Source of the DNA: Cyanobacteria bacterium P01_B01_bin.77
GTDB taxonomy: Bacteria > Cyanobacteriota > Cyanobacteriia > Phormidesmidales > Phormidesmidaceae
DNA length: 12,120 nt
NCBI GenBank assembly: GCA_039028535.1
Contig: JBCCHX010000116.1
Location: 1 to 12,120, forward strand
Direction of reading: 5' to 3'
Below are positions 1-12,120 of this stretch, in pieces. The first letter of the stretch is position 1. Each line of letters begins with the position of its first letter. The notes beneath the pieces are model-generated. The model worked only from the letters and a program-made list of their open reading frames with translations. It made no database searches and was not told where the DNA came from. The position numbers were made by a program, and so were the translations under genes.

Positions 1-45
1 ATGCTTATAGTTTTCTTGAGGCAATTAATGGTTTAGGCAAGAACC

Positions 46-1938
46 TTGAAGACGAAGATTTATTCTAATGATATCAATCAAATGATAAACTTCAAAGCAC
101 TAGAAATAAGATCTAATAACAACTATTCTTTCGTTGGCATAGAAAAAAAGCAAGGTAAAACTTATTTTTTTATACCTAAGGGTTTTTCATTTATAGATTA
201 TCAATTTCTGAGTAACTATGATGAAAAACGAGATCTATTTTTCAATTTTTATAAAATAATCAAAGAATTTAAATATATTTGTGAGGAGAAAGGATACCTA
301 GAGAAAATTGCTAAAGATCGAGATGGAACTATTATTAAAAACCTTGGTTCTAAAATAGAAATCAATGTAGAGGGCAATGAAAATATATTTTATTCGAAAC
401 TCGATCTAATTGGGGATTTTTTAGATGCTTATGATGAGCTAAGAATATTAGCACTAAAATATAGATTAGGAAAAAAGCAAAAATTTGATGTCGGTCAAAT
501 TCACAAATACTTACACCAAGCCATATATCTACCTAACAACGCTGCCTATGTTGATGAGATGTTAATCCCGAGACAAGCAATACAATTTGAAGCTACTGAT
601 ATCGTTTCAATGTATTGCTATATCTTTGTAGAAATAAAACAGCAACTAAGGGAAAGTGTTGCTTTAGAAATACAATCATTGTCAGAAAAATTTAGACAAA
701 AATATCTACGAAGTCAGGACAGCATCTTTATTGAAAGCACTTATGATGAAGTCTTAAAAAGCCTTAAAGAGTCATTAGAAATAATAGATAAAAATACGTC
801 TATAAAAGATAATGATTATTGGAAATACTATGAGGCAATAGAGCTTTTCCTATATGGAGATTTGACAGAATTCGAAGATGGACAGATTTGGGGAATTAGT
901 AATTTCCACAGCGTCTGGGAATCAGTATGTTTAACTTACTTGGTTAAAAGTCATAACGCTCAATCACTATTATTTGTTGACACTCGATATATTAAATCTC
1001 AAGTGCTGATAGATGCTGGAATTTCTGATAAAGCCTTGAATGCTAATAAAGCTATATTTAAGGTTAATTCCTCTTCTTTGATTCCTGATGCAGTCTTATT
1101 AATTTCAATCGATAAACAGCTTGAAGAATGTAACTCTGATCAGCTTTATTTTATATCTAGTAAAGATTGGAATGACTATGGATATAAAACGTTCAGCTCT
1201 GGCTTTAGAATTGGATACTCAGGTCAGACAGGAGGTGAGCATACTTTTGAAAGGCTAAAACTATTTTATCAGTATGAATATGGAACTCTTACAATAAACA
1301 AACCACTAAGCAACGAGTTTCATTCTTTTTGGGAAATAGAATCAGATGATATTATAGACTCTAAATATTTACACAAGATGTACTTTTTCAATCACTTATT
1401 CTACTTGGCTCTTAGAAAGGGAATAACTGTTTGGAATGAATTTCTGAATGATATTCTTCAACCATTAAGTGTAAGCTTCAATTTGCGACATAACTCATCA
1501 AAAGGAAATGTAATTACACACTCTCTCCTTAGAGAGTATTGTGTAGTAGTTCGTGGAGAATCTAATTCGCGTCCAAAGTCAGAGTTGCTCAAGGATAACT
1601 TTGAGCATTTCATGGAAAAAGCAAAAGACATATATAAAGGTTTTTTTGAGGTAATTGATGTCAAGTATCTAACTGAGGAATGGTTCCTTGATAAAAAGAA
1701 TATTGAGGATATCAAAAATCGTAGTGTACGTAAGCAGTTTGTATATGAGTACTTACTACAAAAGTATTTAGAGAGTGATAGAGATAAATCTAATAGAGTG
1801 ATCCAAAGCAGTTTCTGGCTACCTAAAACTCCAGTTGCTGGCAATAGCTTTTCAGAGCCAGGTGCAGAATTTATGAATGGATGTATCCATCTGAGGAATA
1901 TTGATTTTATGAAAATAGCTCAGGCTTACTTAGAATAG
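46..1938 (+). CDS. Putative PD-(D/E)xK restriction-endonuclease-like protein (McrC/LlaJI-type subunit suspected; family assignment tentative)
   Basis: Uninterrupted 630-codon ORF with TTG at 46; the first in-frame ATG is at 82. Nuclease-like motifs are LIPD348AVLL (D at nt 1087-1089) and FFE535-V-I-D538-V-K540-Y (nt 1648-1668), followed by RKQFVYEY. This resembles the PD...(D/E)xK-Y...Q..Y pattern of McrC-type nucleases. D528 (AKDIY) is an alternative first acidic residue much closer to D538. The ORF is far more AT-rich than the rest of the window. No homology search was possible. Confidence 0.5.
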   Translation: MKTKIYSNDINQMINFKALEIRSNNNYSFVGIEKKQGKTYFFIPKGFSFIDYQFLSNYDEKRDLFFNFYKIIKEFKYICEEKGYLEKIAKDRDGTIIKNLGSKIEINVEGNENIFYSKLDLIGDFLDAYDELRILALKYRLGKKQKFDVGQIHKYLHQAIYLPNNAAYVDEMLIPRQAIQFEATDIVSMYCYIFVEIKQQLRESVALEIQSLSEKFRQKYLRSQDSIFIESTYDEVLKSLKESLEIIDKNTSIKDNDYWKYYEAIELFLYGDLTEFEDGQIWGISNFHSVWESVCLTYLVKSHNAQSLLFVDTRYIKSQVLIDAGISDKALNANKAIFKVNSSSLIPDAVLLISIDKQLEECNSDQLYFISSKDWNDYGYKTFSSGFRIGYSGQTGGEHTFERLKLFYQYEYGTLTINKPLSNEFHSFWEIESDDIIDSKYLHKMYFFNHLFYLALRKGITVWNEFLNDILQPLSVSFNLRHNSSKGNVITHSLLREYCVVVRGESNSRPKSELLKDNFEHFMEKAKDIYKGFFEVIDVKYLTEEWFLDKKNIEDIKNRSVRKQFVYEYLLQKYLESDRDKSNRVIQSSFWLPKTPVAGNSFSEPGAEFMNGCIHLRNIDFMKIAQAYLE

Positions 1939-2063
1939 TGGCTTCTGTAAGCTAGAGCCTTATTACATGCCCTGTATTTATATGTCTATTTAGCTTGGAA
2001 CGTATTGCATAAGCCATACTATTGAGCAATGGCCCTACAGGCTATTGAAAGAATATCTAAACT

Positions 2064-2092
2064 AGCCCTTGTGATTGCACAAGGGCTTTTTA
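2064..2092 (+). terminator. Rho-independent terminator downstream of the AT-rich ORF
   Basis: Perfect 10-bp stem AGCCCTTGTG (2064-2073) / CACAAGGGCT (2078-2087) with loop ATTG, followed by TTTT at 2088-2091. On the opposite strand no comparable T-run follows the stem, so it is oriented for the + strand. Confidence 0.75.
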
Positions 2093-2180
2093 TAAGGCTT
2101 AAAAATCATCAAGACGCCTTGCTGAATCTGGGTTAGGCAGGTGATAACAGGGGGAGATGTTCTTTCATGCTCCCTAAACC

Positions 2181-2606
2181 ATGTCCGATCCTTTAACTGC
2201 AGGTACGATCGCAACCCTGATATTCACAACCGCTGTCGGTAAATTGACCGAAGCGTTGACAGAGGATGCACGAAAGCAGCTAACTCAGAAATTACAGTCT
2301 TTGAAAGAGCTGATCGGCTCCAAGTTTCAAGGCAAGGCTAAAGCTGCATTGGCCAGGGCTGACCGGGGAGATGAAACGGATAAGGATACAGTCACCAAAT
2401 ATTTGGGTATGGCAATGGCTGAAGATCCTGCCTTTGCCCAACAGGTGAGAGCCTTAGCCAACGATATTGAGCAGGTTATCAAGATCGACCAAGTCCAGGG
2501 GCAAAATGTACAGAACGTGTTTGGTGGTGAAGCCAATCAGGTAAACAACCCTCAAGGCCCGGTCATCATGGGCGGTAGTGGCAACACAATTAACATCAAT
2601 ACCTGA
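2181..2606 (+). CDS. Small helical protein with a hydrophobic N-terminal helix and a duplicated G/N/Q-rich C-terminal motif (candidate NLR-associated effector/adaptor)
   Basis: 141-aa ORF starting at ATG 2181. The N-terminus DPLTAGTIATLIFTTAVGKL is a roughly 17-residue apolar stretch. Residues about 20-100 are charged and amphipathic (helix-like). The C-terminal 40 residues are Q/N/G-rich, with two aligned copies NVFGGEANQVN (2514-2546) and VIMGGSGNTIN (2562-2594). Composition matches the downstream NB-ARC gene. It ends at TGA 2604-2606, in frame with the next ORF. Confidence 0.6.
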   Translation: MSDPLTAGTIATLIFTTAVGKLTEALTEDARKQLTQKLQSLKELIGSKFQGKAKAALARADRGDETDKDTVTKYLGMAMAEDPAFAQQVRALANDIEQVIKIDQVQGQNVQNVFGGEANQVNNPQGPVIMGGSGNTININT

Positions 2607-2720
2607 CCAGAGTCGTCGAGTACAGGCTCGACAAGGTCAACCCTGCCCTACAGCAATCCATATCCCAAAACGCTGAATCCAGGGGCACCGTTTCAGGCAC
2701 CACCTCTGCCTCGGCACTAT

Positions 2721-5700
2721 GTGCAGCGGCCTGAGCATTTCGAGGCAGTTAAGGCCAGGCTACTGGATGAGAGCACACCTGGCACCTTAGTGATCAGTGC
2801 TATCTATGGCATGGGGGGTATTGGCAAATCGGTTCTGGCTGCAGCTCTGGTCCAGAATGACGAGATTCAACAACGTTTCCCGGATGGGGTACTGTGGGTG
2901 ACCCTGGGTCAGCAGCCAGACATGCTCTCGATGGTGAACCTGTGGATTCGAGAGTTGGGAGACTATGACTATAATCCCACTACTCTACAGGCGGCATCAT
3001 TACACCTGCGAACGTTGCTAGCCGATAGGAAAGCACTACTGGTTATTGATGATGTGTGGCATCCAGAACATGTAGAGCCCTTTCGCATCGCAGGGGCTGG
3101 GTGCCGTGTGCTGGTGACGACTCGGCAAACCAAGATTGTTGGAGCAACCCGCTACGACCTAGATTTGATGACTCAGCAGCAGTCATTGGAGCTTCTCACC
3201 CGATGCTTACCAACTCCATTATCTGAGGCAGAAAAATCATCTGCTGAGACCTTCGCTAAAGAAGTAGGCTATTTGCCCCTGGCTTTAGAATTAGCTGCGG
3301 CCCAGATTGAGGATGGAGTGACCTGGGACGAGCTGCTAGAGGCCTTTCAATCCGAAATGGCGGATCCCGAAGCGCTGGATATTGATAGTGATGTGGCGTC
3401 CTTAAGCGATGAAACCATTCGGAAACGTCGCAGTTTAGTAGCTTCTTTCAAACTCACACTTAAGCTACTTTCCCCGAAACAATTGGAGCAATTTGCCTGG
3501 TTCGGCATTGTTCCTGAGGATGTCTCTCTAACTCAACAGATGGCGGCCACCTTATGGGGAGTGAAGCCCATAAAGGCAGGCAAGTTGCTGCGAGGGTTCA
3601 AAAATCGGGCGCTGCTGTTACCCCAGGCTCAACGAACTGGTGAGAAACCGACCTATCGCATTCATGACTTGGTGCATGATTTTGCTAAAAATTTGCTAAC
3701 GAGTGAGCAGTATTTAGGGGATTTGTCAGGATTAGGCCTCCCTGTTGAAACAGCCCACTCTCAATTTCTTGAGCGATATCAGGATCAAACAAAAGATGGC
3801 CTATGGCATACCGTTCCAGCAGATGGGTACATCCACAGTCACTTAGTTTGGCATTTTGAGCAATCTGGTCAGCCAGGGTTGATACATCAACTGCTAAAGG
3901 AATCAACATCAGACGGACGAAATGGTTGGTATGAAATTTGCGAACAGTTGGGACAGACAGCCAATTTCGTCACCGATACTGCTCGGGCATGGCAAGCCGC
4001 TGGGAGACTCTATGAACAGAATGTGACTGAGTCGATTGCACTGCAGTGTAGATATGCTCTGATTACAACATCTCTCAATAGCCTGGTTCAAAATCTTCCT
4101 CCTACATTAACTGCAGCACTTGTACAAAAGGGATTATGGCAACCAGCTCAAGGACTAGCCTATGTACGGCAAAGTCCGTATCAGTTTATTAGAGCTGAGG
4201 GTCTTAAAACATTAGTGCCTTATTTACCAGGGGCGTTAATGAAAGAGGCATTAGTAATAGCGCGTTCGATTGAAGGTGAGACTTATCGAGCCTATGCTCT
4301 GTGTGGGGTTGCCGAATATGTGCCCGAGATATTGAAGGAAGCATTAGTGATGGCACGCTCGATTGAAGATGAGACTTATCGGGCTAGAGTTCTGAGTTTA
4401 TTAGCTCCCTATCTACCGGAAGTGTTAGAGGAGGCGTTGTTATTAACGCACTCAATTAAAGATGAGATGGATCGGGCTAGTGTTCTAAGTAGCTTAATCC
4501 CTCATTTACCAGGATCATTGATGCCGGACGCATTGGCAATAGTATCTTCCATTCAGCATGAGTTGAGTCGGGCTAATGCGCTAAGTTGGGTTGCCCCATA
4601 TTTATCAGAATTTTTGATAAGGGATGCATTATCGATAGTTCGCTCGATTCAGCATAAGTCTGAACAGGCTTATGCTCTGAGTTTATTAGCTCCATATTTG
4701 CCAGAGATAGCTAGCGAAGCCTTGAGTATGACACCCTTAATCCAACCTGGATATCTACAGAGTGTTGCTCTAAGTTCATTAGCTCCATATTTGCCAGATT
4801 CACTGACAAAAGAAGCATTAGCAGTAGCGCGCTCGATTCAGCATGAGCGTCCTCGGATCGAAGCATTGCGTTCATTAGCTCCCTATTTGCCGGGCGTGTT
4901 GGAAGAAGCATTGGCAATAGCGCGCTCGATTCCAGATGAGCATTCTCGAGCGGATGCTCTAATGAAATTTGTTCCAGATGTGCCAGAGGTATTGGAGGAA
5001 GTGTTATCAGTAGCGTGCTTGATTGAAGAGGAATCTGAACGGGCCAATATCCTAATTGAAGTAGCTCCATATTTGCCACAAGTGGTGAGAGAGGCGTGGA
5101 TGGTAGCTTGCTCGATTCAGAATGCGCCTGAACGAATCGAAGCCTTGGAAAAATTAGCTGAATATGTGCCAGAACCATTGATGAAAGAGATCTTAGTATT
5201 AGCCAGGTCGATTCAGGATAAGCTTTTCCAAGCTGGTGTATTGATTGAGCTAGTAGAGTATTTGCCGGAAGTAATAAGTGAGGCATTCACAGTAGCACGC
5301 TCAATTCAGGATAATTATTCACGTGCTAAAGCTCTAAGTTGGGTAGCGCAGTATGTGCCAGAAGGGATACATGAAGCCTTGGCAGCAACGCGCTTAATCC
5401 AAAGTGAAAAGTTACGTAATCGTGCTTTAAGCGAGTTAGTGATGTACTTACCAGAAGTAGTAGGTGAGGCCTTAGCGATAGCGCGCTCGATTCAGGACAG
5501 ACTTCATAGGGAAAGCGCTATGAGTTGGTTAATCAAGTACATACCAGCCAAGAGTAGTGAAGCGTTGGAAATAGCGCGTTCGATTCAGGATGAATATTAT
5601 CGGGCCAAGGCCTTAAGTTGGGTAGCCGAGTACATGCCAGAGGTAAGGACAGAGGCTTTGGAAGTAGCCCGCTCGATTCAGAAGAAGTATTTTCGAGCCA

Positions 5701-6296
5701 ATGTTCTGAATAGCATGGCTAAATACATGCCAGAAGTAAGAAGTGAAGCATTGGTGGCAGTACGCGCTATTGAATATAAGAGTCTCCGCATCAAGGCCCT
5801 GAGTGCATTAGCCGAGTATATGCCTGAATTAACAAGTGAGGCCCTGGAGGCAGTATTTTCCATGCAGAGTGGGTATGACCAGGCTGAGGCAATAGTTGAT
5901 TTAGCTCCATATTTGCCGGAATCATTGCTCCCTAAGGCTATAGAGATAACTCGTTCAATTCAGGGTGAATGTTACCAGGCTGAGGCAATAAGAGGGTTAG
6001 CTCCATATTTGCCGGAATTATTGCTACCCAAAATCATAGAAATGGCTCATTCGATTCAGGATGAGTACTATCGGGCCAAAGCTCTGAGTGGATTGGTGCA
6101 CATGCTCAAAACAATTGAAACAGATTTTGATGCTTGGCAAAACCTTGTTCACACCTTGGCGTATCAAGATCGCCAATTCTTCCTCACCAATATTCCCAAA
6201 CTCGCCCCAGCAATCATTTCCCTATCCGGCGGAGGCACAAAGGCTTTAGAATTAGTCGTTGAGGCAATGCAAGACGTTTGTCATCAATGGCCATGA
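2721..6296 (+). CDS. NB-ARC (APAF-1/CED-4/R-protein type) STAND NTPase with a C-terminal array of 21 HEAT/ARM-like helical repeats (bacterial NLR-like protein)
   Basis: NB-ARC motifs present: Walker A GMGGIGKS (nt 2808-2831), Walker B LLVIDDVW (DD at 3048-3053), RVLVTTR, GYLPLALE (GLPL motif, about 3267-3290) and RIHDLVHD (MHD-type, from 3660). A helical linker region follows (YIHSHLVWHFEQSG...), then 21 repeats of consensus ALxxARSIQDExxRAxALSxLAPYLPExLxE, and a unique C-terminal cap ending in QWP. The first canonical start is GTG 2721, only 29 residues before the P-loop. The frame is open upstream back to TGA 2604-2606, so the true N-terminus is uncertain. Confidence 0.9.
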   Translation: MQRPEHFEAVKARLLDESTPGTLVISAIYGMGGIGKSVLAAALVQNDEIQQRFPDGVLWVTLGQQPDMLSMVNLWIRELGDYDYNPTTLQAASLHLRTLLADRKALLVIDDVWHPEHVEPFRIAGAGCRVLVTTRQTKIVGATRYDLDLMTQQQSLELLTRCLPTPLSEAEKSSAETFAKEVGYLPLALELAAAQIEDGVTWDELLEAFQSEMADPEALDIDSDVASLSDETIRKRRSLVASFKLTLKLLSPKQLEQFAWFGIVPEDVSLTQQMAATLWGVKPIKAGKLLRGFKNRALLLPQAQRTGEKPTYRIHDLVHDFAKNLLTSEQYLGDLSGLGLPVETAHSQFLERYQDQTKDGLWHTVPADGYIHSHLVWHFEQSGQPGLIHQLLKESTSDGRNGWYEICEQLGQTANFVTDTARAWQAAGRLYEQNVTESIALQCRYALITTSLNSLVQNLPPTLTAALVQKGLWQPAQGLAYVRQSPYQFIRAEGLKTLVPYLPGALMKEALVIARSIEGETYRAYALCGVAEYVPEILKEALVMARSIEDETYRARVLSLLAPYLPEVLEEALLLTHSIKDEMDRASVLSSLIPHLPGSLMPDALAIVSSIQHELSRANALSWVAPYLSEFLIRDALSIVRSIQHKSEQAYALSLLAPYLPEIASEALSMTPLIQPGYLQSVALSSLAPYLPDSLTKEALAVARSIQHERPRIEALRSLAPYLPGVLEEALAIARSIPDEHSRADALMKFVPDVPEVLEEVLSVACLIEEESERANILIEVAPYLPQVVREAWMVACSIQNAPERIEALEKLAEYVPEPLMKEILVLARSIQDKLFQAGVLIELVEYLPEVISEAFTVARSIQDNYSRAKALSWVAQYVPEGIHEALAATRLIQSEKLRNRALSELVMYLPEVVGEALAIARSIQDRLHRESAMSWLIKYIPAKSSEALEIARSIQDEYYRAKALSWVAEYMPEVRTEALEVARSIQKKYFRANVLNSMAKYMPEVRSEALVAVRAIEYKSLRIKALSALAEYMPELTSEALEAVFSMQSGYDQAEAIVDLAPYLPESLLPKAIEITRSIQGECYQAEAIRGLAPYLPELLLPKIIEMAHSIQDEYYRAKALSGLVHMLKTIETDFDAWQNLVHTLAYQDRQFFLTNIPKLAPAIISLSGGGTKALELVVEAMQDVCHQWP
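4158..6110 (+). repeat. In-frame tandem coding repeats, period 93 or 96 bp, about 21 units (the sensor-repeat array of the NLR)
   Basis: Recurrent DNA blocks include GCGCGCTCGATTCAG (for example near 4828, 4918, 5478 and, with substitutions, 5571 and 5658) and TTAGCTCCATATTTGCC(A/G)GA. The adjacent units at about 5879 and 5976 share CAGGCTGAGGCAATA...TTAGCTCCATATTTGCCGGAA. The units translate to 31-32-aa repeats. Confidence 0.9.
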
Positions 6297-6503
6297 GACA
6301 AGTTTCTACATTGAGAGCATAGCATTCTTGCCACTATCGATTAAATGTCAATTGCTTTGGTTAGCACACTTAAACATAATGAGTCATGCTTGAACTACAA
6401 GCACTGTGGCTGTCAGCAAACGGATAAATGACTGTGTCAGCAGCATGGCCCCATTCAGGGAGTAAGGCTCAACTATAATCCAGACTAAGGATATATTGAG
6501 CCA

Positions 6504-7913
6504 ATGGTTACTACTCTTGCCCAAATCGACGTATGGCGGCAAACATCCAGAGAAAATTCAAAGCTGGAATTCAAGGAAGCAAAGAGAAGCTTTGACAAAA
6601 ATAAGCTCTACCGTTATTGCGTAGCTATTGCCAACGAAGGCGGTGGACACCTTTTACTAGGCATTACAGATTCCCGTCCCCGCACTGTCGTTGGCAGTGC
6701 GGCATTTCCTGACACTGATAGCATTACCGAAAAGCTATTTACAGTTTTGCGCTTTCGAGTGGATGTGGAAGTTGTCAATCACCCCGATGGCAGAGTTGTA
6801 GTTTTCCATATCCCATCTCGCCCCACAGGTACTGCATATAGTTACGACGGAGCCTACCTCATGCGCTCTGGTGAAAACCTGGTACCTATGACCGAGGACC
6901 AGCTCCGCAGAATCTTTGCTGAGGGGCAACCCGACTGGCTTGGTGGGATATCAAGAGCTAATTGCACAGATGAAGACATCGTGCGTCTACTAGATACCCA
7001 AAGCTACTACGATCTTCAAGATCGCACCTATCCGAGTACTCGTACAGAAGTTTTACGCAAGCTAGAGCTAGAGCACCTGATAATCGCCACCACTGGTGGT
7101 TGGAACATAACCCGTATGGGAGCGTTGCTCTTTGCCAAACGCATTGAGGATTTTTCAGATCTGCAACCTAAAGCACCACGTTTCATCGTCTACGAAAACA
7201 ATAACAAGCTCAACACTCGCATGGACATCTTTGGAGGGAAAGGCTATGCCGTTGGGTTTACGGGCTTAGTAGATTTCATCATGGCCCAGGCTCCTCAAAG
7301 TGAAGTCCTCAGCGGAGCACTACGGGAATCAGTCAAGATGTTTCCTGAGGAAGCAGTACGTGAATTAGTAGCAAATGCCCTCATCCATCAAGATTTTGCC
7401 CAGGACGGTCCCTCAGTCAGGATTGAACTCTATTCAGATCGGCTAGAAATTAGTAACCTGGGTCTTCCGCCCATTGATGTGGAACGATTCATCGATGAGG
7501 ACAAGTCCCGTAATGAGCGCCTGGCCGATCTGATGCGTCGTCTCAGAATTTGTGAGCGTAAAGGCAGTGGCTTCGACCGAGTGGTTAATGCGGCTGAAGA
7601 CTATCAGTTACCGGCTCCGGATATCCGTATCGGCTCATTACATACCTCCGTCGTGTTATTTGCCCATAAGGAATTCAAAGAGATGGACCGTGACGAGCGT
7701 ATTCGGGCCACTTATCAGCACTGCTGCCTGAGGTATGTAATGAATGAAAAAATGACCAATAAGTCCCTCAGAAAACGTTTTCAGCTACCCGACAAGAAAA
7801 CGGAACCCGTATCCCGAGCAATCCGTGAAGCCCTCGACTCACAGCTGATCAAACCGGCTGATCCATCAGTGACATCTACTCGCTATCGCAGCTATATCCC
7901 CCAATGGGCATGA
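6504..7913 (+). CDS. AlbA_2 (Schlafen-like, 'divergent AAA') + HATPase_c_4 + C-terminal winged-helix protein; putative nucleic-acid-binding regulator / ATP-binding protein
   Basis: 469-aa ORF with AAGGA 13 nt upstream of ATG 6504. The N-terminus LEFKEA...YCVAIANEGGGHLLLGITD...VVG matches the AlbA_2 signature as I recall it. The central ELVANALIHQDF...IELYSDRLEISNLG...RNERLADLMRRLRICERKGSGFDRV matches the HATPase_c_4 (RecG-like C-terminal) pattern. The C-terminal MTNKSLRKRF...VSRAIREALDSQLIK...YIPQWA looks like a wHTH. Confidence 0.8.
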   Translation: MVTTLAQIDVWRQTSRENSKLEFKEAKRSFDKNKLYRYCVAIANEGGGHLLLGITDSRPRTVVGSAAFPDTDSITEKLFTVLRFRVDVEVVNHPDGRVVVFHIPSRPTGTAYSYDGAYLMRSGENLVPMTEDQLRRIFAEGQPDWLGGISRANCTDEDIVRLLDTQSYYDLQDRTYPSTRTEVLRKLELEHLIIATTGGWNITRMGALLFAKRIEDFSDLQPKAPRFIVYENNNKLNTRMDIFGGKGYAVGFTGLVDFIMAQAPQSEVLSGALRESVKMFPEEAVRELVANALIHQDFAQDGPSVRIELYSDRLEISNLGLPPIDVERFIDEDKSRNERLADLMRRLRICERKGSGFDRVVNAAEDYQLPAPDIRIGSLHTSVVLFAHKEFKEMDRDERIRATYQHCCLRYVMNEKMTNKSLRKRFQLPDKKTEPVSRAIREALDSQLIKPADPSVTSTRYRSYIPQWA

Positions 7914-8100
7914 TGTCTCTTTAGATTTAGGCCATATTTTGAGAGCTATTGTCTCCGGAATCACTGGCATATAAAGGTTTTCTTCTTTAGACGCTAATTC
8001 CTATCGATTGAGTTCTTCTTTAGATTCAGGCCGCTTCTAGAGACCCCATTTCCCTGAAACTATTGATATACAAAGGTTTTCTTCTTTAGACGCTAATTCC
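7914..8100. repeat. Diverged tandem duplication (units about 88 and 99 bp) carrying four copies of (T)TCTTTAGA
   Basis: An exact 29-nt repeat AAAGGTTTTCTTCTTTAGACGCTAATTCC occurs at 7973-8001 and 8072-8100. Each unit also starts with CTTTAGATT(T/C)AGGCC (about 7918 and about 8018). The interiors align at roughly two-thirds identity by eye. Confidence 0.7.
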
Positions 8101-8618
8101 CATTCCATTTGCGCCTTTTCACGATAGAGACGGATACTTTCTGATTCGTCAGTTCAACCAGTAGCAGGTTTCAAAACGCCGCAACCACTCCAGAAAGAAA
8201 GGCGCGAATGCTTAGTAGGGGATTGATTTGGATGGTTACGCAGTGCGTAGAGACTGTAATCGGTAGAGTTGCGATCTCATAGTCAACTGCAGCAGCAGTT
8301 TCTTCAGCTGATCGACTGGCACCCTATATCTACTGACCACTGCATCTACTGGCCACTGCCCTATCTGGGGCTGCTCCTTTCATAGCCGATACAGTGCCAG
8401 GGGTAATATGCGACCCTTACTTCTCATCTATTAGGGTCAAATCGAAAGAAACGCCAGCAGTTGGGGTCGAGTAGAGCAAAGCTATCGATTGGCTAAGAGT
8501 GGTTGAAATTCAAATGCTCAAAATATCATTCGAGGCTTTAGGGTCAAATCCTTCAAGATCAGTGGCTTTCACTTTTGCTGCCATGTCAACGGTGTTTCCA
8601 TGACCAAGTGTAGGTCTG

Positions 8619-8750
8619 AAACCTATATGGTGAAGGACTTCTGGCGATGTGTAGGACTTGAAAAATAGTGTATAGGACTATGTGTAGGGCTAAAACCTAT
8701 ATAGTGAAGGACTTTTAGAGATGTGAAGGACTTTTCTTGTAGACTAGGAT
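8619..8750. repeat. Iteron-like cluster of TG(T/A)(G/A)(A/T)AGGACT motifs, including a 41-nt direct repeat
   Basis: AAACCTATATGGTGAAGGACTTCTGGCGATGTGTAGGACTT (8619-8659) is repeated as AAACCTATATAGTGAAGGACTTTTAGAGATGTGAAGGACTT (8693-8733). Further TAGGACT / TAGGGCT / AGACTAGGA copies lie between and after them, giving 6-7 copies of the AGGACT core spaced 13-21 nt apart. Confidence 0.6.
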
Positions 8751-8863
8751 GGCGATAAAAATCAAAAAAAGAGCAATGCTGAATGGTTGCAGTTTGTCGC
8801 CTCCTATAAAAAATTAACCCCTGAAAGCGCTGACAGGAAAAGCTTTCAATCATATAAGCTTAC

Positions 8864-8908
8864 GCTTTGGGGTAGTAGGGGTCGTGGGTTCAAATCCCGC
8901 CGCTCCGA
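8864..8908 (+). tRNA. 3' fragment of tRNA-Pro(GGG), anticodon loop to discriminator; not a complete gene; probable att-site remnant
   Basis: Anticodon loop TTGGGGT (8867-8873; U33, GGG anticodon, G37). Variable loop GGGTC. T-arm GTGGG-TTCAAAT-CCCGC (8884-8900). Acceptor 3' strand CGCTCCG (8901-8907), implying the C1-G72 pair typical of bacterial tRNA-Pro. Discriminator A at 8908. No CGGAGCG 5' acceptor strand or D-arm exists upstream, and anticodon-stem pairing breaks down 5' of about 8864. Confidence 0.75.
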
Positions 8909-8917
8909 TTTAATTGG

Positions 8918-8940
8918 AACCCGCTCATTGAGCGGGTTTT
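8918..8940 (+). terminator. Rho-independent terminator after the tRNA-Pro fragment
   Basis: 9-bp stem AACCCGCTC (8918-8926) / GAGCGGGTT (8930-8938), loop ATT, running into TTTT (8937-8940). Confidence 0.7.
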
Positions 8941-8995
8941 GTCATATTTATCAAGCCTTTTGAGCCTTGCCTTATGGGGTGGGTTCATCAAAATA

Positions 8996-9044
8996 TTGGG
9001 TCACTTTTGGTCAGTTTGGGTAGCATTTGGGTATGAGTTGGGTA
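8996..9044 (+). promoter_or_regulatory. Helically phased heptamer repeats upstream of the integrase start (candidate arm-type/operator sites)
   Basis: TTGGGTA occurs at 9016-9022, 9027-9033 and 9038-9044, an exact 11-bp period. It is preceded by TTGGGTC (8996-9002) and TTTGGTC (9006-9012) at about 10-bp spacing. The array ends 6 nt before ATG 9051. Confidence 0.5.
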
Positions 9045-9050
9045 TGAAAT

Positions 9051-9374
9051 ATGCCACAAACAACCCGAAAAAAATCGCCCAAAGGCACCGTCTCGGTTGA
9101 GGAATATCAGAGTCGATTGCGGCTCAGGTAGCGGCACCTGGGTAAGCGATACGCCTTATCCATAGGGCTTCCAGACTCTAAGGTCAACCGCCAGGTAGCA
9201 CAGCAAAAGGCGACGATCATTGAGCTGGATATTGCGTCGGGCAACTTTGACCTGACCATGAAAAAGTACAAGCCTCATACCCAAAATAGCGAAGGCCTTG
9301 CTGTGGTGGGCCTTTTCGAGCTTTTTATGGAGTACAAGGCGAAGCGGTTATTGCCCAGAAGTTTGGATAAGTAG
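9051..9374 (+). pseudogene. Tyrosine recombinase (phage-type integrase) N-terminal arm-binding region; in-frame TAG and truncated by IS insertion
   Basis: Translation is MPQTTRKKSPKGTVSVEEYQSRLRLR*RHLGKRYALSIGLPDSKVNRQVAQQKATIIELDIASGNFDLTMKKYKPH...LPRSLDK. TAG 9129-9131 sits where integrases of this type have Trp (LRLRW). The pattern matches the N-terminal (DUF3596-like) domain of integrases as I recall it. The reading frame runs into the IS inverted repeat at 9367, and no catalytic domain follows anywhere in the window. Confidence 0.7.
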
Positions 9375-10393
9375 GGTTTGCTGTTGAAGTCCAGCCTTGA
9401 TACTCAGCAAGGGTTTCATACTATTGAGATAGGCTTAAGTGCACTGAAAAGTAGCTAAAATGCTCAAAACCCTTGCACCTATTGCGGGTCATGCACCGAC
9501 ACTCTTCCCCTAGCCAGCTATCGTTCCAAGACTTTTATTTGCCGTGCCGAAACCTAGGTCACATTGACCAGTTAATCGAAGCAGGCGCAACGCTTGCAGC
9601 GCTGAATTCACAGGAGTATAAGACTCTGTTGGTAATTCATGAGGTGTATCGCCAACAACAGCATATGTATCAACATAAGCAGCGACGGATTGATGACCGC
9701 CTTGTGAGTCTTTCACAGCCCCATGTGCGCCCCATTGTTCGCGGTAAAGCTGGGACTCCAGTGGAATTTGGAGCCAAATTCGCCATTAGTTGTGTGGCCG
9801 GGTATGTGTTCCTCGACCATCTCAGTTGGGATAACTTCAATGAATCTGAGGACTTGATACCTCAGATAGAACGGTTTCGAACCCGCACCGGCCACTATCC
9901 TGCCTCCGTGCATGCCGACCAGATTTATCGGACACGCGAGAACTTGAGATGGTGCAAACGGCATAGCATCCGTCTGAGTGGTCCGCCCTTAGGCCGACCG
10001 TCGCTCGATGAAACCCAACAAGCCCTCCTTCGACAACGAGCCCGAGACGATGAGAGCGTTCGTGTTGCCGTCGAAGATAAGTTTGGTCGGGCCAAACGAC
10101 GATTTGGCCTCGGACGGGTGATGGCCAAACTTGCCCAAACCGTCGAAACCATGATTGCCATCACCTGTTTAGTGATCAACTTGGAGAAACGGCTACGCCG
10201 TTTTATTGGCTTGGTGTTGATGGTATTGATTCGGTTACTACGGAGCTATCGGGCAACTATACGTCCCTTTGTGGCAAGAGTAAGCGATAACTGGTTTAAA
10301 AACGTCGACTATCAGCAAGGCTATACTGACCACGCCTGCGCTGCCGGATAACCCCTGAGATTTTTACTGAGTTTTTCAGCAAGCCCTACTTAT
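9367..10393 (+). mobile_element. IS5-family insertion sequence, internally deleted (non-autonomous) derivative, 1027 bp
   Basis: Terminal inverted repeats are ATAAGTAGGGTTTGCTG (9367-9383) and CAGCAAGCCCTACTTAT (10377-10393), matching at 16 of 17 positions. They enclose a transposase ORF that lacks its middle part. No clear target-site duplication is visible, and the two flanks are unrelated (integrase on one side, IS1 fragment on the other). Confidence 0.7.
9491..10351 (+). CDS. IS5-family DDE transposase, internally deleted and probably inactive
   Basis: The likely native start is ATG 9491 (MHRHSSPSQLSFQDFYLP, the usual N-terminus of this transposase type); the ORF track opens at TTG 9473. 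After FYLP the sequence jumps to the C-terminal two-thirds: SQPHVRPIVRGKAGTPVEFGAK...NESEDL...HADQIYRTRENLRWCKRHSIRLSGPPLGRP...RVAVEDKFGRAKRRFGLGRVMAKL...NLEK. The DUF772-like region and the first catalytic Asp region appear to be missing. The product is 286 aa, against roughly 450-500 aa expected for full-length relatives (from memory). Confidence 0.65.
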   Translation: MHRHSSPSQLSFQDFYLPCRNLGHIDQLIEAGATLAALNSQEYKTLLVIHEVYRQQQHMYQHKQRRIDDRLVSLSQPHVRPIVRGKAGTPVEFGAKFAISCVAGYVFLDHLSWDNFNESEDLIPQIERFRTRTGHYPASVHADQIYRTRENLRWCKRHSIRLSGPPLGRPSLDETQQALLRQRARDDESVRVAVEDKFGRAKRRFGLGRVMAKLAQTVETMIAITCLVINLEKRLRRFIGLVLMVLIRLLRSYRATIRPFVARVSDNWFKNVDYQQGYTDHACAAG

Positions 10394-10564
10394 ATGACGA
10401 GAGTAGAAGGCGAGAACACACGGTTACGGCATTACCTAGCTCGTTTGCATCGCAAGACGTTGTGTTATTCGAAGTCGCTCGAGATATTGAAGCATGCCTT
10501 GCGCTTGTTGATTCACTATCTCAAGTTTGGGGAGGTGCCGCTGCCGCCTAGATTCATCCCTTGA
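10394..10564 (+). pseudogene. IS1-family transposase (InsB-like) C-terminal fragment
   Basis: Translation is (MTR)VEGENTRLRHYLARLHRKTLCYSKSLEILKHALRLLIHYLKFGEVPLPPRFIP*. This matches the E. coli IS1 InsB C-terminus pattern [27 protein letters not shown]. Only about 55 residues are present, and the fragment starts directly at the right end of the IS5-like element. Confidence 0.65.
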
Positions 10565-10668
10565 TTCAGCAACGCTAACAGGTTCATGTGACTTTTTAAC
10601 ACAGCATGGAGAAGCTCTGATCAAGCAATGGTAATTTCAGCTATGGAAGACGGGGTGTAATTAGCACT

Positions 10669-12120
10669 ATGACGAGTACAATCCAAACTTCACCAAAGTT
10701 AGCCCACTGCTCTGTAGAGCAGTGGAAAAGGTTGCTACAGTCTATAGAAAGTACCCTGCTGGTAATGCCAACAGGGAGTGGTAAAACCTGGACAGCACGG
10801 CAGTCTTTGAAGCAGTGGGCCGAGCAAGGATATTTGGGAGTTTATCTTTCTCCCTTAAAGGCGTTGGCTCAGGAGCAGGTTAATGTCTTAAGACGAGATT
10901 TTCCTCATCTGAAGGTTGGGCTCTTTACTGGAGAAGTAACTGAGAACCCAAGAGATGTTCAAATTCTGGTGGCAACCCATGAGAAGTTTGATGTTTATTT
11001 AAAGCGCCCTAAGCTGTATCTCGATTGGCTGGCACGGATTGGAGTAGTGGTGGTGGATGAGATTCATCTGCTAGCCGATCCACAGCGGGGCGGACGCTTG
11101 GAGTCCCTGCTTGTGCGGCTGCAAGAGGTGAATCCTTTTGTGCAAGTTTTAGGTCTCTCGGCCACACTTACGAATGCAGATGAGCTATCTAGTTGGTTAA
11201 AGGGAAGAGTATTACGGGGTGGAACTCGTCCTGTTTCTTTAGAAACGGAGTTTCTTCGATATAAAACTGAGGAACAAAAAATAGATTGTTTACTTTCTCG
11301 GTTGGCTTGCGGGCGTGAAGAAGGTGGTCAAACGCTGATCTTTGTTGCCACACGCCGTAGGGCAGAAACCTTAGAGACCTTCCTTAGCCAACAAGGATAT
11401 AGGGTTAAGCATCATCATTCAGGTCTGTGGCCCCAAGAACGATTAGAGGTTGAAGGGGCATTTCGAGCTGGACAATTAGAAGTCTTGGTGGCAACTCCCA
11501 CCCTAGAGATGGGGGTCAACCTTCCGGCACGTCGGGTGATTCTTTATGACACGTATCAGTTTAATGGAGAAGGGTTTGAACCGCTCTCCGTCCAATCATT
11601 TTTACAGCGTATTGGTCGAGCGGGGCGACCAGGACTTGATACTAAGGGAGAGGCGTTTGTATTGTTACCGGCCTGGGCGGATGATGGTCCTTATCAGCGA
11701 GGAATTCCAGAAAAGGTTTTTTCTCGTCTTGGTCGCTCCCAGATATTAAGTCAGTTCTTTTTAGATTTAATTGAAGCAGGATTGGCCCAGAGCACTGAGG
11801 ATTTGAAGTGGATTTACCAACGGACACTCCATGCTCACCAACAGTCTGAAGTAGATCTAGAGGGGACCTTAGCACTGCTGCTAGATGAGGGATTCATTGC
11901 TAAGAAAGAAGATGGTCTGCGGGTGACCTATTTGGGCCGGATTACGGCTCGATTATCTTTGAGCCCAATGGATCTGGTGCTAAGTCGTAAGCTGATTGAC
12001 CTGGATGCGAAAACGCCCTATGACCTGATATTGGTTGTATCGCTGTGGTCTAGTCTATCGCCTCGCTTATGGTGCGCGTTAGAAGATATTGAGCTGATGC
12101 AGGAAGCTTTAGACGGGATG
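10669..12120 (+). CDS. Superfamily-2 DExH helicase, Ski2/Hel308-like (COG1204-type); 3'-partial, continues beyond the window
   Basis: I translated 484 codons from ATG 10669 to the window end with no stop codon. This ORF is not in the supplied track, presumably because it has no stop in the window. Helicase motifs present: I MPTGSGKT (10765-10788), Ia LSPLKALA, II VVVDEIH (DEIH at 11056-11067), III LSATLTN, IV LIFVATRR, V VATPTLEMGVNLPA, and VI QRIGRAGRPG (11605-11634). A TGA at 10618-10620 closes the frame upstream. Confidence 0.85.
   Translation, partial: MTSTIQTSPKLAHCSVEQWKRLLQSIESTLLVMPTGSGKTWTARQSLKQWAEQGYLGVYLSPLKALAQEQVNVLRRDFPHLKVGLFTGEVTENPRDVQILVATHEKFDVYLKRPKLYLDWLARIGVVVVDEIHLLADPQRGGRLESLLVRLQEVNPFVQVLGLSATLTNADELSSWLKGRVLRGGTRPVSLETEFLRYKTEEQKIDCLLSRLACGREEGGQTLIFVATRRRAETLETFLSQQGYRVKHHHSGLWPQERLEVEGAFRAGQLEVLVATPTLEMGVNLPARRVILYDTYQFNGEGFEPLSVQSFLQRIGRAGRPGLDTKGEAFVLLPAWADDGPYQRGIPEKVFSRLGRSQILSQFFLDLIEAGLAQSTEDLKWIYQRTLHAHQQSEVDLEGTLALLLDEGFIAKKEDGLRVTYLGRITARLSLSPMDLVLSRKLIDLDAKTPYDLILVVSLWSSLSPRLWCALEDIELMQEALDGM

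Follow-up and report, generated by a model that had tools for sequence, protein, structure and literature searches.

The Bell domain of bacterial amyloid signalling has been described as a five-helix bundle of 120-140 aa with a hydrophobic N-terminal helix and an acidic residue at position 2-3 (Dyrka et al., 2020; bioRxiv 10.1101/2020.01.06.895854), and for the bacterial amyloid signalling sequences (BASS) a composition with much G/N/Q/V/I and little K/P/L has been reported. In the Bab/Agp system of E. coli, phage defence works through amyloid templating that switches on a cell-death domain of the Bell type (bioRxiv 10.1101/2024.11.07.622273). A locus comparable to these systems lies in a 12,120-nt stretch of DNA, hereafter the window, from Cyanobacteria bacterium P01_B01_bin.77 (assembly GCA_039028535.1, contig JBCCHX010000116.1, positions 1 to 12,120 of the forward strand). 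A small open reading frame (ORF) of 141 aa, running from ATG to TGA (2181-2606, +), is recognised from the ORF list and its homologues as a probable Bell-domain effector with a C-terminal amyloid-signalling-like tail, and is followed in the same frame by an ORF for a NOD-like receptor (NLR). The best explanation is that a cyanobacterial NLR system based on amyloid signalling is expressed from 2181-6296 as a single unit. With some reserve, we hold it to be the more probable case that a Bell effector with an amyloid motif is made here and that the NLR is reached by programmed stop-codon read-through.

The junction between the small ORF and the receptor ORF

In the window, the small ORF and the NLR ORF share one frame (2721 - 2181 = 540) and are parted by a single in-frame TGA with C at position +4 (2604-2607, +), the proposed recoding site. 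From its first canonical start, a GTG, the NLR ORF extends over 2721-6296 (+) and encodes an NB-ARC domain (Pfam E = 3.7e-26, from ORF residue 5; Walker A GMGGIGKS), a winged helix and a series of some 20 tandem repeats. These repeats (nt about 4244-6068, +) are helical, measure 31 residues or 93 nt with a spacing of 31-32 residues, and take the form ..EAL.IARSIQDE..RA.ALS.LAPYLPE..; no Pfam repeat family matches them. The interval 2607-2720 (+) consists of 38 in-frame codons with neither a stop nor ATG, GTG or TTG, and would be the linker (PESSSTGSTRSTLPYSNPYPKTLNPGAPFQAPPLPRHY) of a putative read-through product of 1371 aa (2181-6296). A reading made earlier from the letters of the window and their ORFs, the sequence-only reading, had placed both copies of a tail motif upstream of the TGA, directly abutting the NLR linker if read through, and the 38 open codons leading in frame to GTG 2721 bear this out.

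The same arrangement is found widely in cyanobacteria. A search of the small ORF against 5.8 billion proteins gave 30 homologues, and the arrangement was met in 38 distinct loci fetched around homologues and around blastn matches of the junction in plasmids of cultured strains. The small ORFs of these loci are 36-89% identical to that of the window, and the loci come from several cyanobacterial orders, with Nostoc, Acaryochloris, Leptolyngbyaceae and Coleofasciculaceae among the hosts. In all 38 a single stop closes the ORF that bears the motif (TGA in 32, TAG in 5 and TAA in 1), the base after it is C in 37, and the next ORF lies in the same frame (38/38), open for 154-1260 codons. An alternative genetic code was rejected, as TGA is also the ordinary stop of two other genes in the window and all three stops are found at the junction.

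The stop is embedded in a conserved RNA structure. From an unguided MAFFT alignment, RNAalifold predicts two helices independently. The first, P1 (2603-2640, +), was returned unprompted and pairs 2603-2608 (cUGACC), including the stop codon itself, with 2635-2640 (GGUCAa); over the 38 loci 89.8% of its cells are paired, pair 11-41 alternates between UA and CG, and in L004b and L007b, both with TAG, the strand opposite the stop reads GCUA instead of GUYA. The second, P2 (2615-2632, +), is a hairpin starting 8 nt after the stop, in which GUCGAG (2615-2620) and CUCGAC (2627-2632) enclose a loop, and compensatory changes occur at four of its six pairs, one of which is CG 22, GC 9, UA 3, UG 3 and AU 1 times. 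A tentative third helix, P3 (2623-2645, +), between CAGG of the loop (2623-2626) and CCUG (2642-2645), has 85% of cells paired against 17-54% in slid controls, with three of its four pairs covarying; this candidate would give an H-type pseudoknot once the ribosome opens P1. Taken together in the 38 loci, the three helices have 87.8% of cells paired against at most 45% in slid controls, and their covariation score, 0.393 against 0.192, was attained by none of 500 shuffles. The fold of the window junction has z = -2.75, and a covariance model trained on 24 loci recovered 14 extra, untrained copies at 32-62 bits. Rfam holds no family at the junction.

Beyond the RNA structure, substitutions in the linker number 23/29/61 by codon position overall, and 1/2/9, 3/2/11 and 2/0/5 between the window and its closest relatives (including L011 and L012). 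Since they fall mostly at third codon positions, the linker seems to be translated in this frame. The first canonical start of the downstream ORF lies mostly beyond the conserved FVGR / Y[VI]xRP motif with which the NB-ARC domain begins, and in L001 and L016 it lies beyond Walker A; no conserved start codon or Shine-Dalgarno sequence was seen before the FVGR / Walker A motifs across the loci examined. Of ten annotated plasmid loci (nine RefSeq records and one GenBank record), five have the NLR start placed at ATT (twice), CTG, ATC or ATA, and these starts are probably artefacts of the junction. In the window, a terminator-like hairpin stands upstream of the small ORF (2064-2087, +) and none between it and the NLR; therefore, both are probably carried on one transcript.

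These data bear on the notion that the stop is a decaying relic, that is, a nonsense mutation in a once-fused Bell-NLR gene, or that the NLR simply begins at GTG 2721 and shares the frame by accident. True fusions do occur in the wider family (P0034, P0142 and P0152), and GTG 2721 lies just before the NB-ARC domain in the window. However, 38 loci from several orders agree in the position of the stop, always with RNA structure, the downstream ORFs are open for up to 1260 codons, the linker is under purifying selection in frame, and L001 and L016 have no canonical start ahead of Walker A. This notion is scarcely credible and is already contradicted by the comparative data. The true Bell-NLR fusion P0034 (locus L038; GCA_011009555.1) has neither the stop nor the hairpin; its single ORF of 1512 aa (1001-5537) joins an AAA-type ATPase to a Bell domain lacking the initiator Met, to the motif and to an NB-ARC receptor. 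P0046, a supposed fusion with Trp at the junction, proved to be a gene-caller artefact, its DNA having TGA, and no fusion retaining the stop/hairpin element was found among the 30 close homologues.

A more serious competitor is translational coupling, in which the stop would always terminate, the RNA would sequester the post-stop region, and the NLR would be reinitiated nearby without an N-terminal motif, so that it would have to communicate with the Bell-motif protein by a different route. P1 pairs the stop and the next codon with downstream sequence, as in classical structure-dependent coupling, and a minority of loci have the weak start CTG as the codon after the stop. Acaryochloris marina S15 (L048; NZ_CP064925.1, 2994-3000) even has TGA GTG, the sole +4 G among the 38, so that a canonical GTG directly follows the stop while the hairpin is kept; a switch from read-through to stop-start coupling is possible there, and a motif-less NLR may therefore be viable, or termination-reinitiation may replace read-through. 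In about half of the loci, however, the post-stop codon is CTA or CCA, which is unable to initiate. Coupling would need neither a conserved frame nor an open linker of 25-40 codons, although 38/38 loci have both; it finds no conserved start or Shine-Dalgarno sequence to act on; and the nearly constant +4 C suits weak termination, not re-initiation. We therefore regard coupling as unlikely.

Other forms of recoding at the stop are very improbable. Selenocysteine insertion at UGA might be suggested by a hairpin that begins 11 nt from the U of UGA, the same spacing as in the SECIS element of E. coli fdhF, but it is ruled out by the five TAG loci and the one TAA locus, since UGA is obligatory and is lacking in 6/38 loci; no Rfam SECIS match was found either. 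Hopping of the ribosome across the 40 structured nt, of the kind seen in T4 gene 60, would be consistent with a take-off codon that in about half of the loci has a matching codon immediately 3' of P1 (ACC...ACC in the window); yet these codons mismatch in the other half or so, and the segment to be skipped is always open and its length a multiple of three. RNA editing from A to I could, by reasoning only, turn all three stops into UGG, but a conserved TadA motif of the UACG type is missing from the P2 loops, and the stop is part of a stem rather than a loop. For none of these is a known Rfam family present at the site.

Read-through is the simplest mechanism that accounts for all loci. A weak stop with a stable structure at the right distance behind it is a geometry familiar from viral read-through signals. 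UGA-C is reportedly the weakest termination signal in E. coli. In this species TGA is the leakiest stop and is mostly read as Trp (PMC11126739). The sequence-only reading had suggested that read-through of the TGA could make the locus a fused or rearranged version of the two-gene effector/NLR design, and the conserved in-frame junction lends this strong comparative support.

The proteins encoded downstream of the junction differ among loci and include NB-ARC proteins with 31-aa repeats or TPR, NACHT proteins with HEAT repeats and a CHAT protease. The junction joins a Bell-motif ORF to a CHAT protease domain (E 4.9e-11) in L009 (5439-6038) and to a NACHT and HEAT-repeat protein in L022 (5397-8522); therefore, the element is not tied to NB-ARC receptors. 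Plasmid gamma of Nostoc sp. PCC 7120 (L039; NC_003267.1, 3998-4478) carries a Bell protein with a BASS9-like tail, TGA-C and the hairpin, followed in frame by an NB-ARC gene that RefSeq starts at ATT; the junction lies between WP_044520337.1 and WP_044520336.1. Plasmid pMB04 of Acaryochloris sp. 'Moss Beach' (L041; NZ_CP071721.1) carries two adjacent units (2589-3633 and 6086-6602), one with an alpha/beta-hydrolase effector and the other with a Bell effector, which have a common tail and are each followed by a stop/hairpin junction and an NB-ARC/TPR gene. Acaryochloris is unicellular, whereas multicellular bacteria had been reported as the bearers of BASS systems.

The Bell-like domain and its G/N/Q-rich tail

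All 30 homologues of the small protein are stand-alone proteins of 92-162 aa, mostly about 140-145 aa, and cyanobacterial wherever named. A profile search with the small-ORF family over 1.84 billion representative proteins gave 363 matches, mostly of 130-160 aa, and 180 relatives were collected. Residues 1-101 (2181-2483, +) make up a Bell-like helical domain, for which five helices are predicted, the N-terminal one being hydrophobic; residue 3 is Asp. The protein starts with MSDPLTAGTIATLIFTTAVG, in which D3 is the acidic residue, and AlphaFold, with 125 sequences, models this domain at a predicted local distance difference test (pLDDT) score of 82.8 with helices at 7-16, 28-48, 52-61, 65-81 and 83-105. 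The published description of the Bell domain is thus fitted in length (141 aa), in D3, in the hydrophobic first helix and in the number of predicted helices. Moreover, 29 of the 180 collected relatives bear BASS9 tails (up to 49 bits) and 1-2 bear BASS8 tails, and loci found through homology to the N-terminal domain have BASS4 tails in L032 and L034-36 (48.9 bits) and BASS9 tails in L029 and L031 (45.6 bits). Proteins with a Bell domain are those on which the BASS motifs of these relatives were defined, and the N-terminal 100 residues of the small protein are therefore assigned by sequence to the Bell domain. No Pfam, NCBIfam or PADLOC family recognises the small ORF, the only hit being a sub-threshold Rx_N match (E 0.66).

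The tail (residues 102-141; IDQVQGQNVQNVFGGEANQVNNPQGPVIMGGSGNTININT, encoded by 2484-2603, +) is a conserved amyloid-signalling-like motif and the best conserved part of the small protein. It had been described as almost free of charge in contrast to the charged helical body, and indeed 2/40 of its residues are charged against 28/101 in the body, and 21/40 are G/N/Q against 14/101. The sequence-only reading had further aligned two copies of one motif 16 residues apart. Among ungapped 11-mer pairs scored with BLOSUM62, NVFGGEANQVN (pseudo-repeat 1, residues 112-122; 2514-2546, +) and VIMGGSGNTIN (pseudo-repeat 2, residues 128-138; 2562-2594, +) do form the top pair of the tail, with a score of 26, 4 identities and an offset of 16 residues, although 122 of 3000 composition-preserving shuffles of the 40-mer match or beat it (p about 0.04), which makes the duplication marginal within the single sequence; longer registers of 14-16 residues reach no significance. 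The two Pro residues of the tail both lie in the inter-repeat loop.

In alignments of 20-31 homologues with 35-89% identity to the window protein, Q108, N109, Q111, N112, F114, G115, G116, Q120, N122 and G131 are invariant or nearly so, with F114, G115, G116, Q120 and N122 of the first pseudo-repeat and G131 of the second invariant and G132 at least 90% conserved. The motif is accordingly counted as real because of its conservation across homologues, whereas the repeat alone is weak. Its retention among homologues, one of the predictions made for it, was found, as was that of the second GG-centred copy in most members; the exact 16-residue spacing did not hold, the offset being 16-19 residues, and G-D replaces GG in some. 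A looser first-half motif, N[VIL]Q[NA][VI][FYS][GDR]G, is present in 38 of the 180 relatives, and from these 38 a fuller consensus, G[QR]N[VI]Q[NA][VI][FYS]GG..Q.N..P.[AG]P[VT][IF][QMT]GG.G[NH].I.[IF], was drawn by eye. A protein search with the tail only (43-aa query) returned a single fragment and was uninformative. The tail as target of a diversity-generating retroelement was rejected, as the window has no template-like repeat of it and it is conserved, not hypervariable.

How the tail relates to known BASS families was assessed with hidden Markov models (HMMs) that were reconstructed for BASS1-5 and BASS7-9 from the published Table S2 (Dyrka et al., 2020). The tail is absent from that table by substring search, unclassified pairs included, and the models of BASS1, 3, 4, 5, 7, 8 and 9 score it below chance (controls 45-49 bits). 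BASS2 gives 8.2 bits, equalled by 6 of 1800 shuffles and therefore a faint likeness, and with the tail of L010 it gives 12.9 bits, which none of 1800 shuffles reached; the pattern common to the tail and BASS2 is N-x-h-x-GG ... GPV[ILV]QG. A BASS7 likeness of the second pseudo-repeat, suspected by eye, was unsupported by the HMM. Of the resemblance to BASS profiles that had been expected, only this faint BASS2 part is left. As there is no match in Table S2 and only a faint BASS2 signal, the tail is taken, by its sequence, as a new BASS-like family absent from the published families tested (BASS1-5, 7-9). Its composition, a short conserved C-terminal motif of an effector rich in G/N/Q/V/I, agrees with what has been reported for BASS.

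Three kinds of observation speak for a signalling role rather than a linker role. First, in L004 and L007 the motif stands alone as an ORF of 38-42 aa (e.g. MSNPQNEQNVFGGESNQVNNPTAPVILGQDNTVNISY) before a second NLR, at most about 4 kb from the Bell gene and with an in-frame TAG and hairpin separating it from NB-ARC. In sequence terms this layout resembles the pairing of a Bell-side with an NLR-side copy by which BASS are defined; in the window, a motif on the NLR would arise only through read-through of the TGA. Second, in Acaryochloris 'Moss Beach' the tail ..ISGGEV[YF]QGENITINKTT is shared by the alpha/beta-hydrolase and the Bell protein. Third, a BASS7-type tail (Nostoc UHCC 0870) and BASS9-like tails (PCC 7120 and L026) stand at the same position before the stop/hairpin junction.

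It has nevertheless to be considered whether the tail is not amyloid at all but a conserved flexible or beta-rich adaptor or linker, engaged in ordinary homotypic binding or serving as a fusion spacer. AlphaFold gives residues 106-141 a monomer pLDDT of <40, which is expected for such motifs and not informative, no published BASS profile matches convincingly, the internal repeat is only marginally significant, and in the fusions P0038, P0068, P0086, P0096 and P0178 the motif is internal, between Bell and another domain. On the other hand, linkers are not conserved residue by residue, whereas about 10 positions are invariant here; the tail is rich in G/N/Q/V/I and poor in K/L, as reported for BASS; the tails at the same spot before the same junction in other loci are of the established BASS7 and BASS9 types; motif-only ORFs precede NLR paralogues; and portability such as that between the two Acaryochloris effectors is typical of amyloid signalling motifs. 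We give the adaptor or linker a low probability. The preferred interpretation, drawn by analogy, is that the last 35 or so residues would constitute an amyloid signalling motif built of two strand-GG-strand pseudo-repeats. The proposal that the tail resembles BASS and HET-s elements and acts in signalling is supported by the Bell homology, the adjacent NB-ARC NLR, the strong conservation of the tail and the motif-only ORFs of L004 and L007.

Proposed expression and signalling from one message

We infer both read-through and its efficiency from the comparison of sequences; amyloid formation, templating, cell death and a role in defence would follow by analogy. Most ribosomes would stop at the weak UGA-C and release an abundant free Bell-motif protein, the Bell-domain effector being presumed to target membranes and execute cell death. 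A few ribosomes would decode the stop by a near-cognate tRNA, probably as Trp at UGA, stay in frame, pass through the Pro-rich linker and continue into the NB-ARC/31-aa-repeat receptor, giving a rare Bell-motif-NLR fusion of about 1371 aa. On sensing its ligand the receptor would oligomerise, so that its N-terminal motifs cluster and nucleate an amyloid fold, which would template the excess of free Bell-motif protein, activate the Bell domain and lead to membrane attack; these downstream steps are modelled on HET-s/NWD2, BASS and Bab/Agp. A single message would fix the effector-to-sensor ratio, and the motif of the sensor would be identical to that of the effector. The way in which these systems set their ratio would be explained if one message gave numerous effectors but only a small number of sensors, all with the same templating motif.

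A less probable variant, which we think unlikely, is that the junction works as a conditional switch, the sensor or a self-activating fusion being made only when termination is compromised. Suppressor tRNAs encoded by phages, release factors hampered by phages or read-through induced by stress could then act as triggers, and stop-codon suppression would itself be the danger signal that arms or fires amyloid cell death.

Several observations weigh against programmed read-through into an amyloid-signalling NLR. At the RNA level, P1 is incompatible with a stop codon in the ribosomal A site, the covariation rests on a limited number of clade-level events, P3 is a candidate only because it has 4 bp and was spotted by eye after the fact, and L048 departs from the rule with its TGA GTG. 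Structure-stimulated read-through is also unestablished in bacterial cellular genes, for which the table in PMC7026636 holds only SacB of B. subtilis. At the protein level, the low pLDDT of the tail and its failure against most BASS models have to be added. PADLOC does not recognise the system, and a PDB sequence search with the small ORF gave no match. Foldseek of the Bell model against the PDB returned generic helical bundles only (best E 0.89 and 2.2), and no solved Bell/Bab or HeLo structure is among the PDB matches to the model.

If the read-through is true, it would be a rare bacterial case of programmed read-through stimulated by RNA structure, so far mainly a matter of eukaryotic viruses, and the first family of such signals in bacterial cellular genes, distributed across many cyanobacterial NLR loci. 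Some ribosomes probably do read through, and for an effector-motif-receptor fusion made in this way no earlier description was found in the literature searched. Nor was any report of read-through or in-frame stops in bacterial NLR/BASS systems found there, although coverage was incomplete and an earlier description is possible. Catalogues of bacterial amyloid signalling have so far included only systems in which each partner carries an annotated motif, an approach to which the stop-separated class is invisible; therefore, amyloid-signalling NLR systems are probably commoner than reported. As the element is present on plasmid gamma of the genetically tractable Nostoc sp. PCC 7120, the idea is directly testable.

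The other genes of the window are of mixed nature. Upstream lies a 630-aa ORF with a TTG start (46-1938, +) without a Pfam, NCBIfam or PADLOC family; its region has 30-33% GC against 45-50% elsewhere in the window and is possibly foreign DNA because of this low GC. The upstream ORF1 was rejected as part of the system, being unrelated to the gene upstream in L001. Directly after the NLR, 6504-7913 (+) encodes a protein of 469 aa that combines the domains Schlafen AlbA_2 (E 1.7e-14) and HATPase_c_4 (E 1.1e-20) and has weak PADLOC matches to Argonaute-associated PNTD proteins (E 1.6e-7); this Schlafen-like gene may be another gene of a defence island. The non-coding stretch after it contains tandem direct repeat pairs within 7918-8103 and 8602-8733, of 87 nt (76% identical) and 58 nt (84% identical), and a weak tmRNA-like Rfam match at 8883-8900 (E 0.055) that is probably due to chance. 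Further on are a DDE transposase ORF (9473-10351, +; DDE_Tnp_1_2, E 6e-31) and a short ORF at 10394-10564, and transposases or recombinases also flank L004, L042, L044 and L048.

Comparison with known systems

The closest described systems are the Bell/BASS/NLR pairs of filamentous bacteria (Dyrka et al., 2020; bioRxiv 10.1101/2020.01.06.895854), which resemble the window in a Bell protein of about 140 aa with a G/N/Q-rich C-terminal motif, in a collinear NB-ARC/NACHT NLR immediately downstream, in the cyanobacterial host, in pseudo-repeats on the Bell side and in the occurrence of the motif on other effectors such as an alpha/beta-hydrolase. Unlike these pairs, the NLR of the window has neither a motif nor a start of its own, and an in-frame stop with RNA structure forms the join. 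Loci of this kind would be missed in that work because its screen needed the motif at the N-terminus of an annotated NLR, and the pair of PCC 7120, for example, does not appear in its published BASS table.

The E. coli Bab/Agp system (BASS11; bioRxiv 10.1101/2024.11.07.622273) likewise consists of adjacent genes sharing an amyloid motif, and by analogy it is a functional precedent for the mechanism proposed. It differs in being made of two separately initiated proteins, with a non-NLR partner and a motif of a different family.

The fungal HET-s/NWD2 pair (HRAM) has a membrane-targeting helical effector, a C-terminal prion-forming region of two pseudo-repeats with a G/P-containing loop between them, and an adjacent nucleating NLR, to which the presumed effector, the putative pseudo-repeats and the NLR of the window would correspond. 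Its repeats are 21 residues apart, against 16-19 here, and there is no sequence similarity; NWD2 carries one repeat, whereas the NLR-side copies of L004b and L007b and the putative read-through product carry two. We know of no fungal counterpart of the recoding junction.

For the junction itself, the nearest parallels are viral. In viral read-through the stem-loop or pseudoknot begins about 8 nt after the stop. The pseudoknot of murine leukaemia virus (MuLV) gag-pol and the alphavirus-type UGA-C plus stem-loop (Firth et al., 2011, as cited in PMC5009743) share with the window a start-less in-frame ORF2 and a leaky stop with C at +4, and read-through in MuLV is about 5% (PMC7026636). The viral systems have a fixed low ratio of long to short product, as proposed here, but they use eukaryotic ribosomes and eRF1, whereas the window holds a bacterial chromosomal or plasmid gene, and P1, which pairs the stop codon itself, is a further helix beyond the viral design.

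Among bacterial examples, the UGA of Q-beta is read by tRNA-Trp, and to our knowledge neither Q-beta A1 nor SacB has a conserved downstream RNA structure. In both Q-beta A1 and SacB of B. subtilis, bacterial ribosomes read through a stop to yield a C-terminally extended protein (PMC7026636); here, by comparison, the extension would be a whole receptor of 1200 aa, and dozens of immune loci, paralogues as well as orthologues, share the element. Finally, the all-in-one Bell-NLR fusions P0034, P0142 and P0152 have the same order of Bell, motif, NB-ARC and repeats as the proposed product. They have no stop and no hairpin, as seen in P0034, and so would give the long form only, whereas the window would supply both a free effector and its fusion to the receptor.

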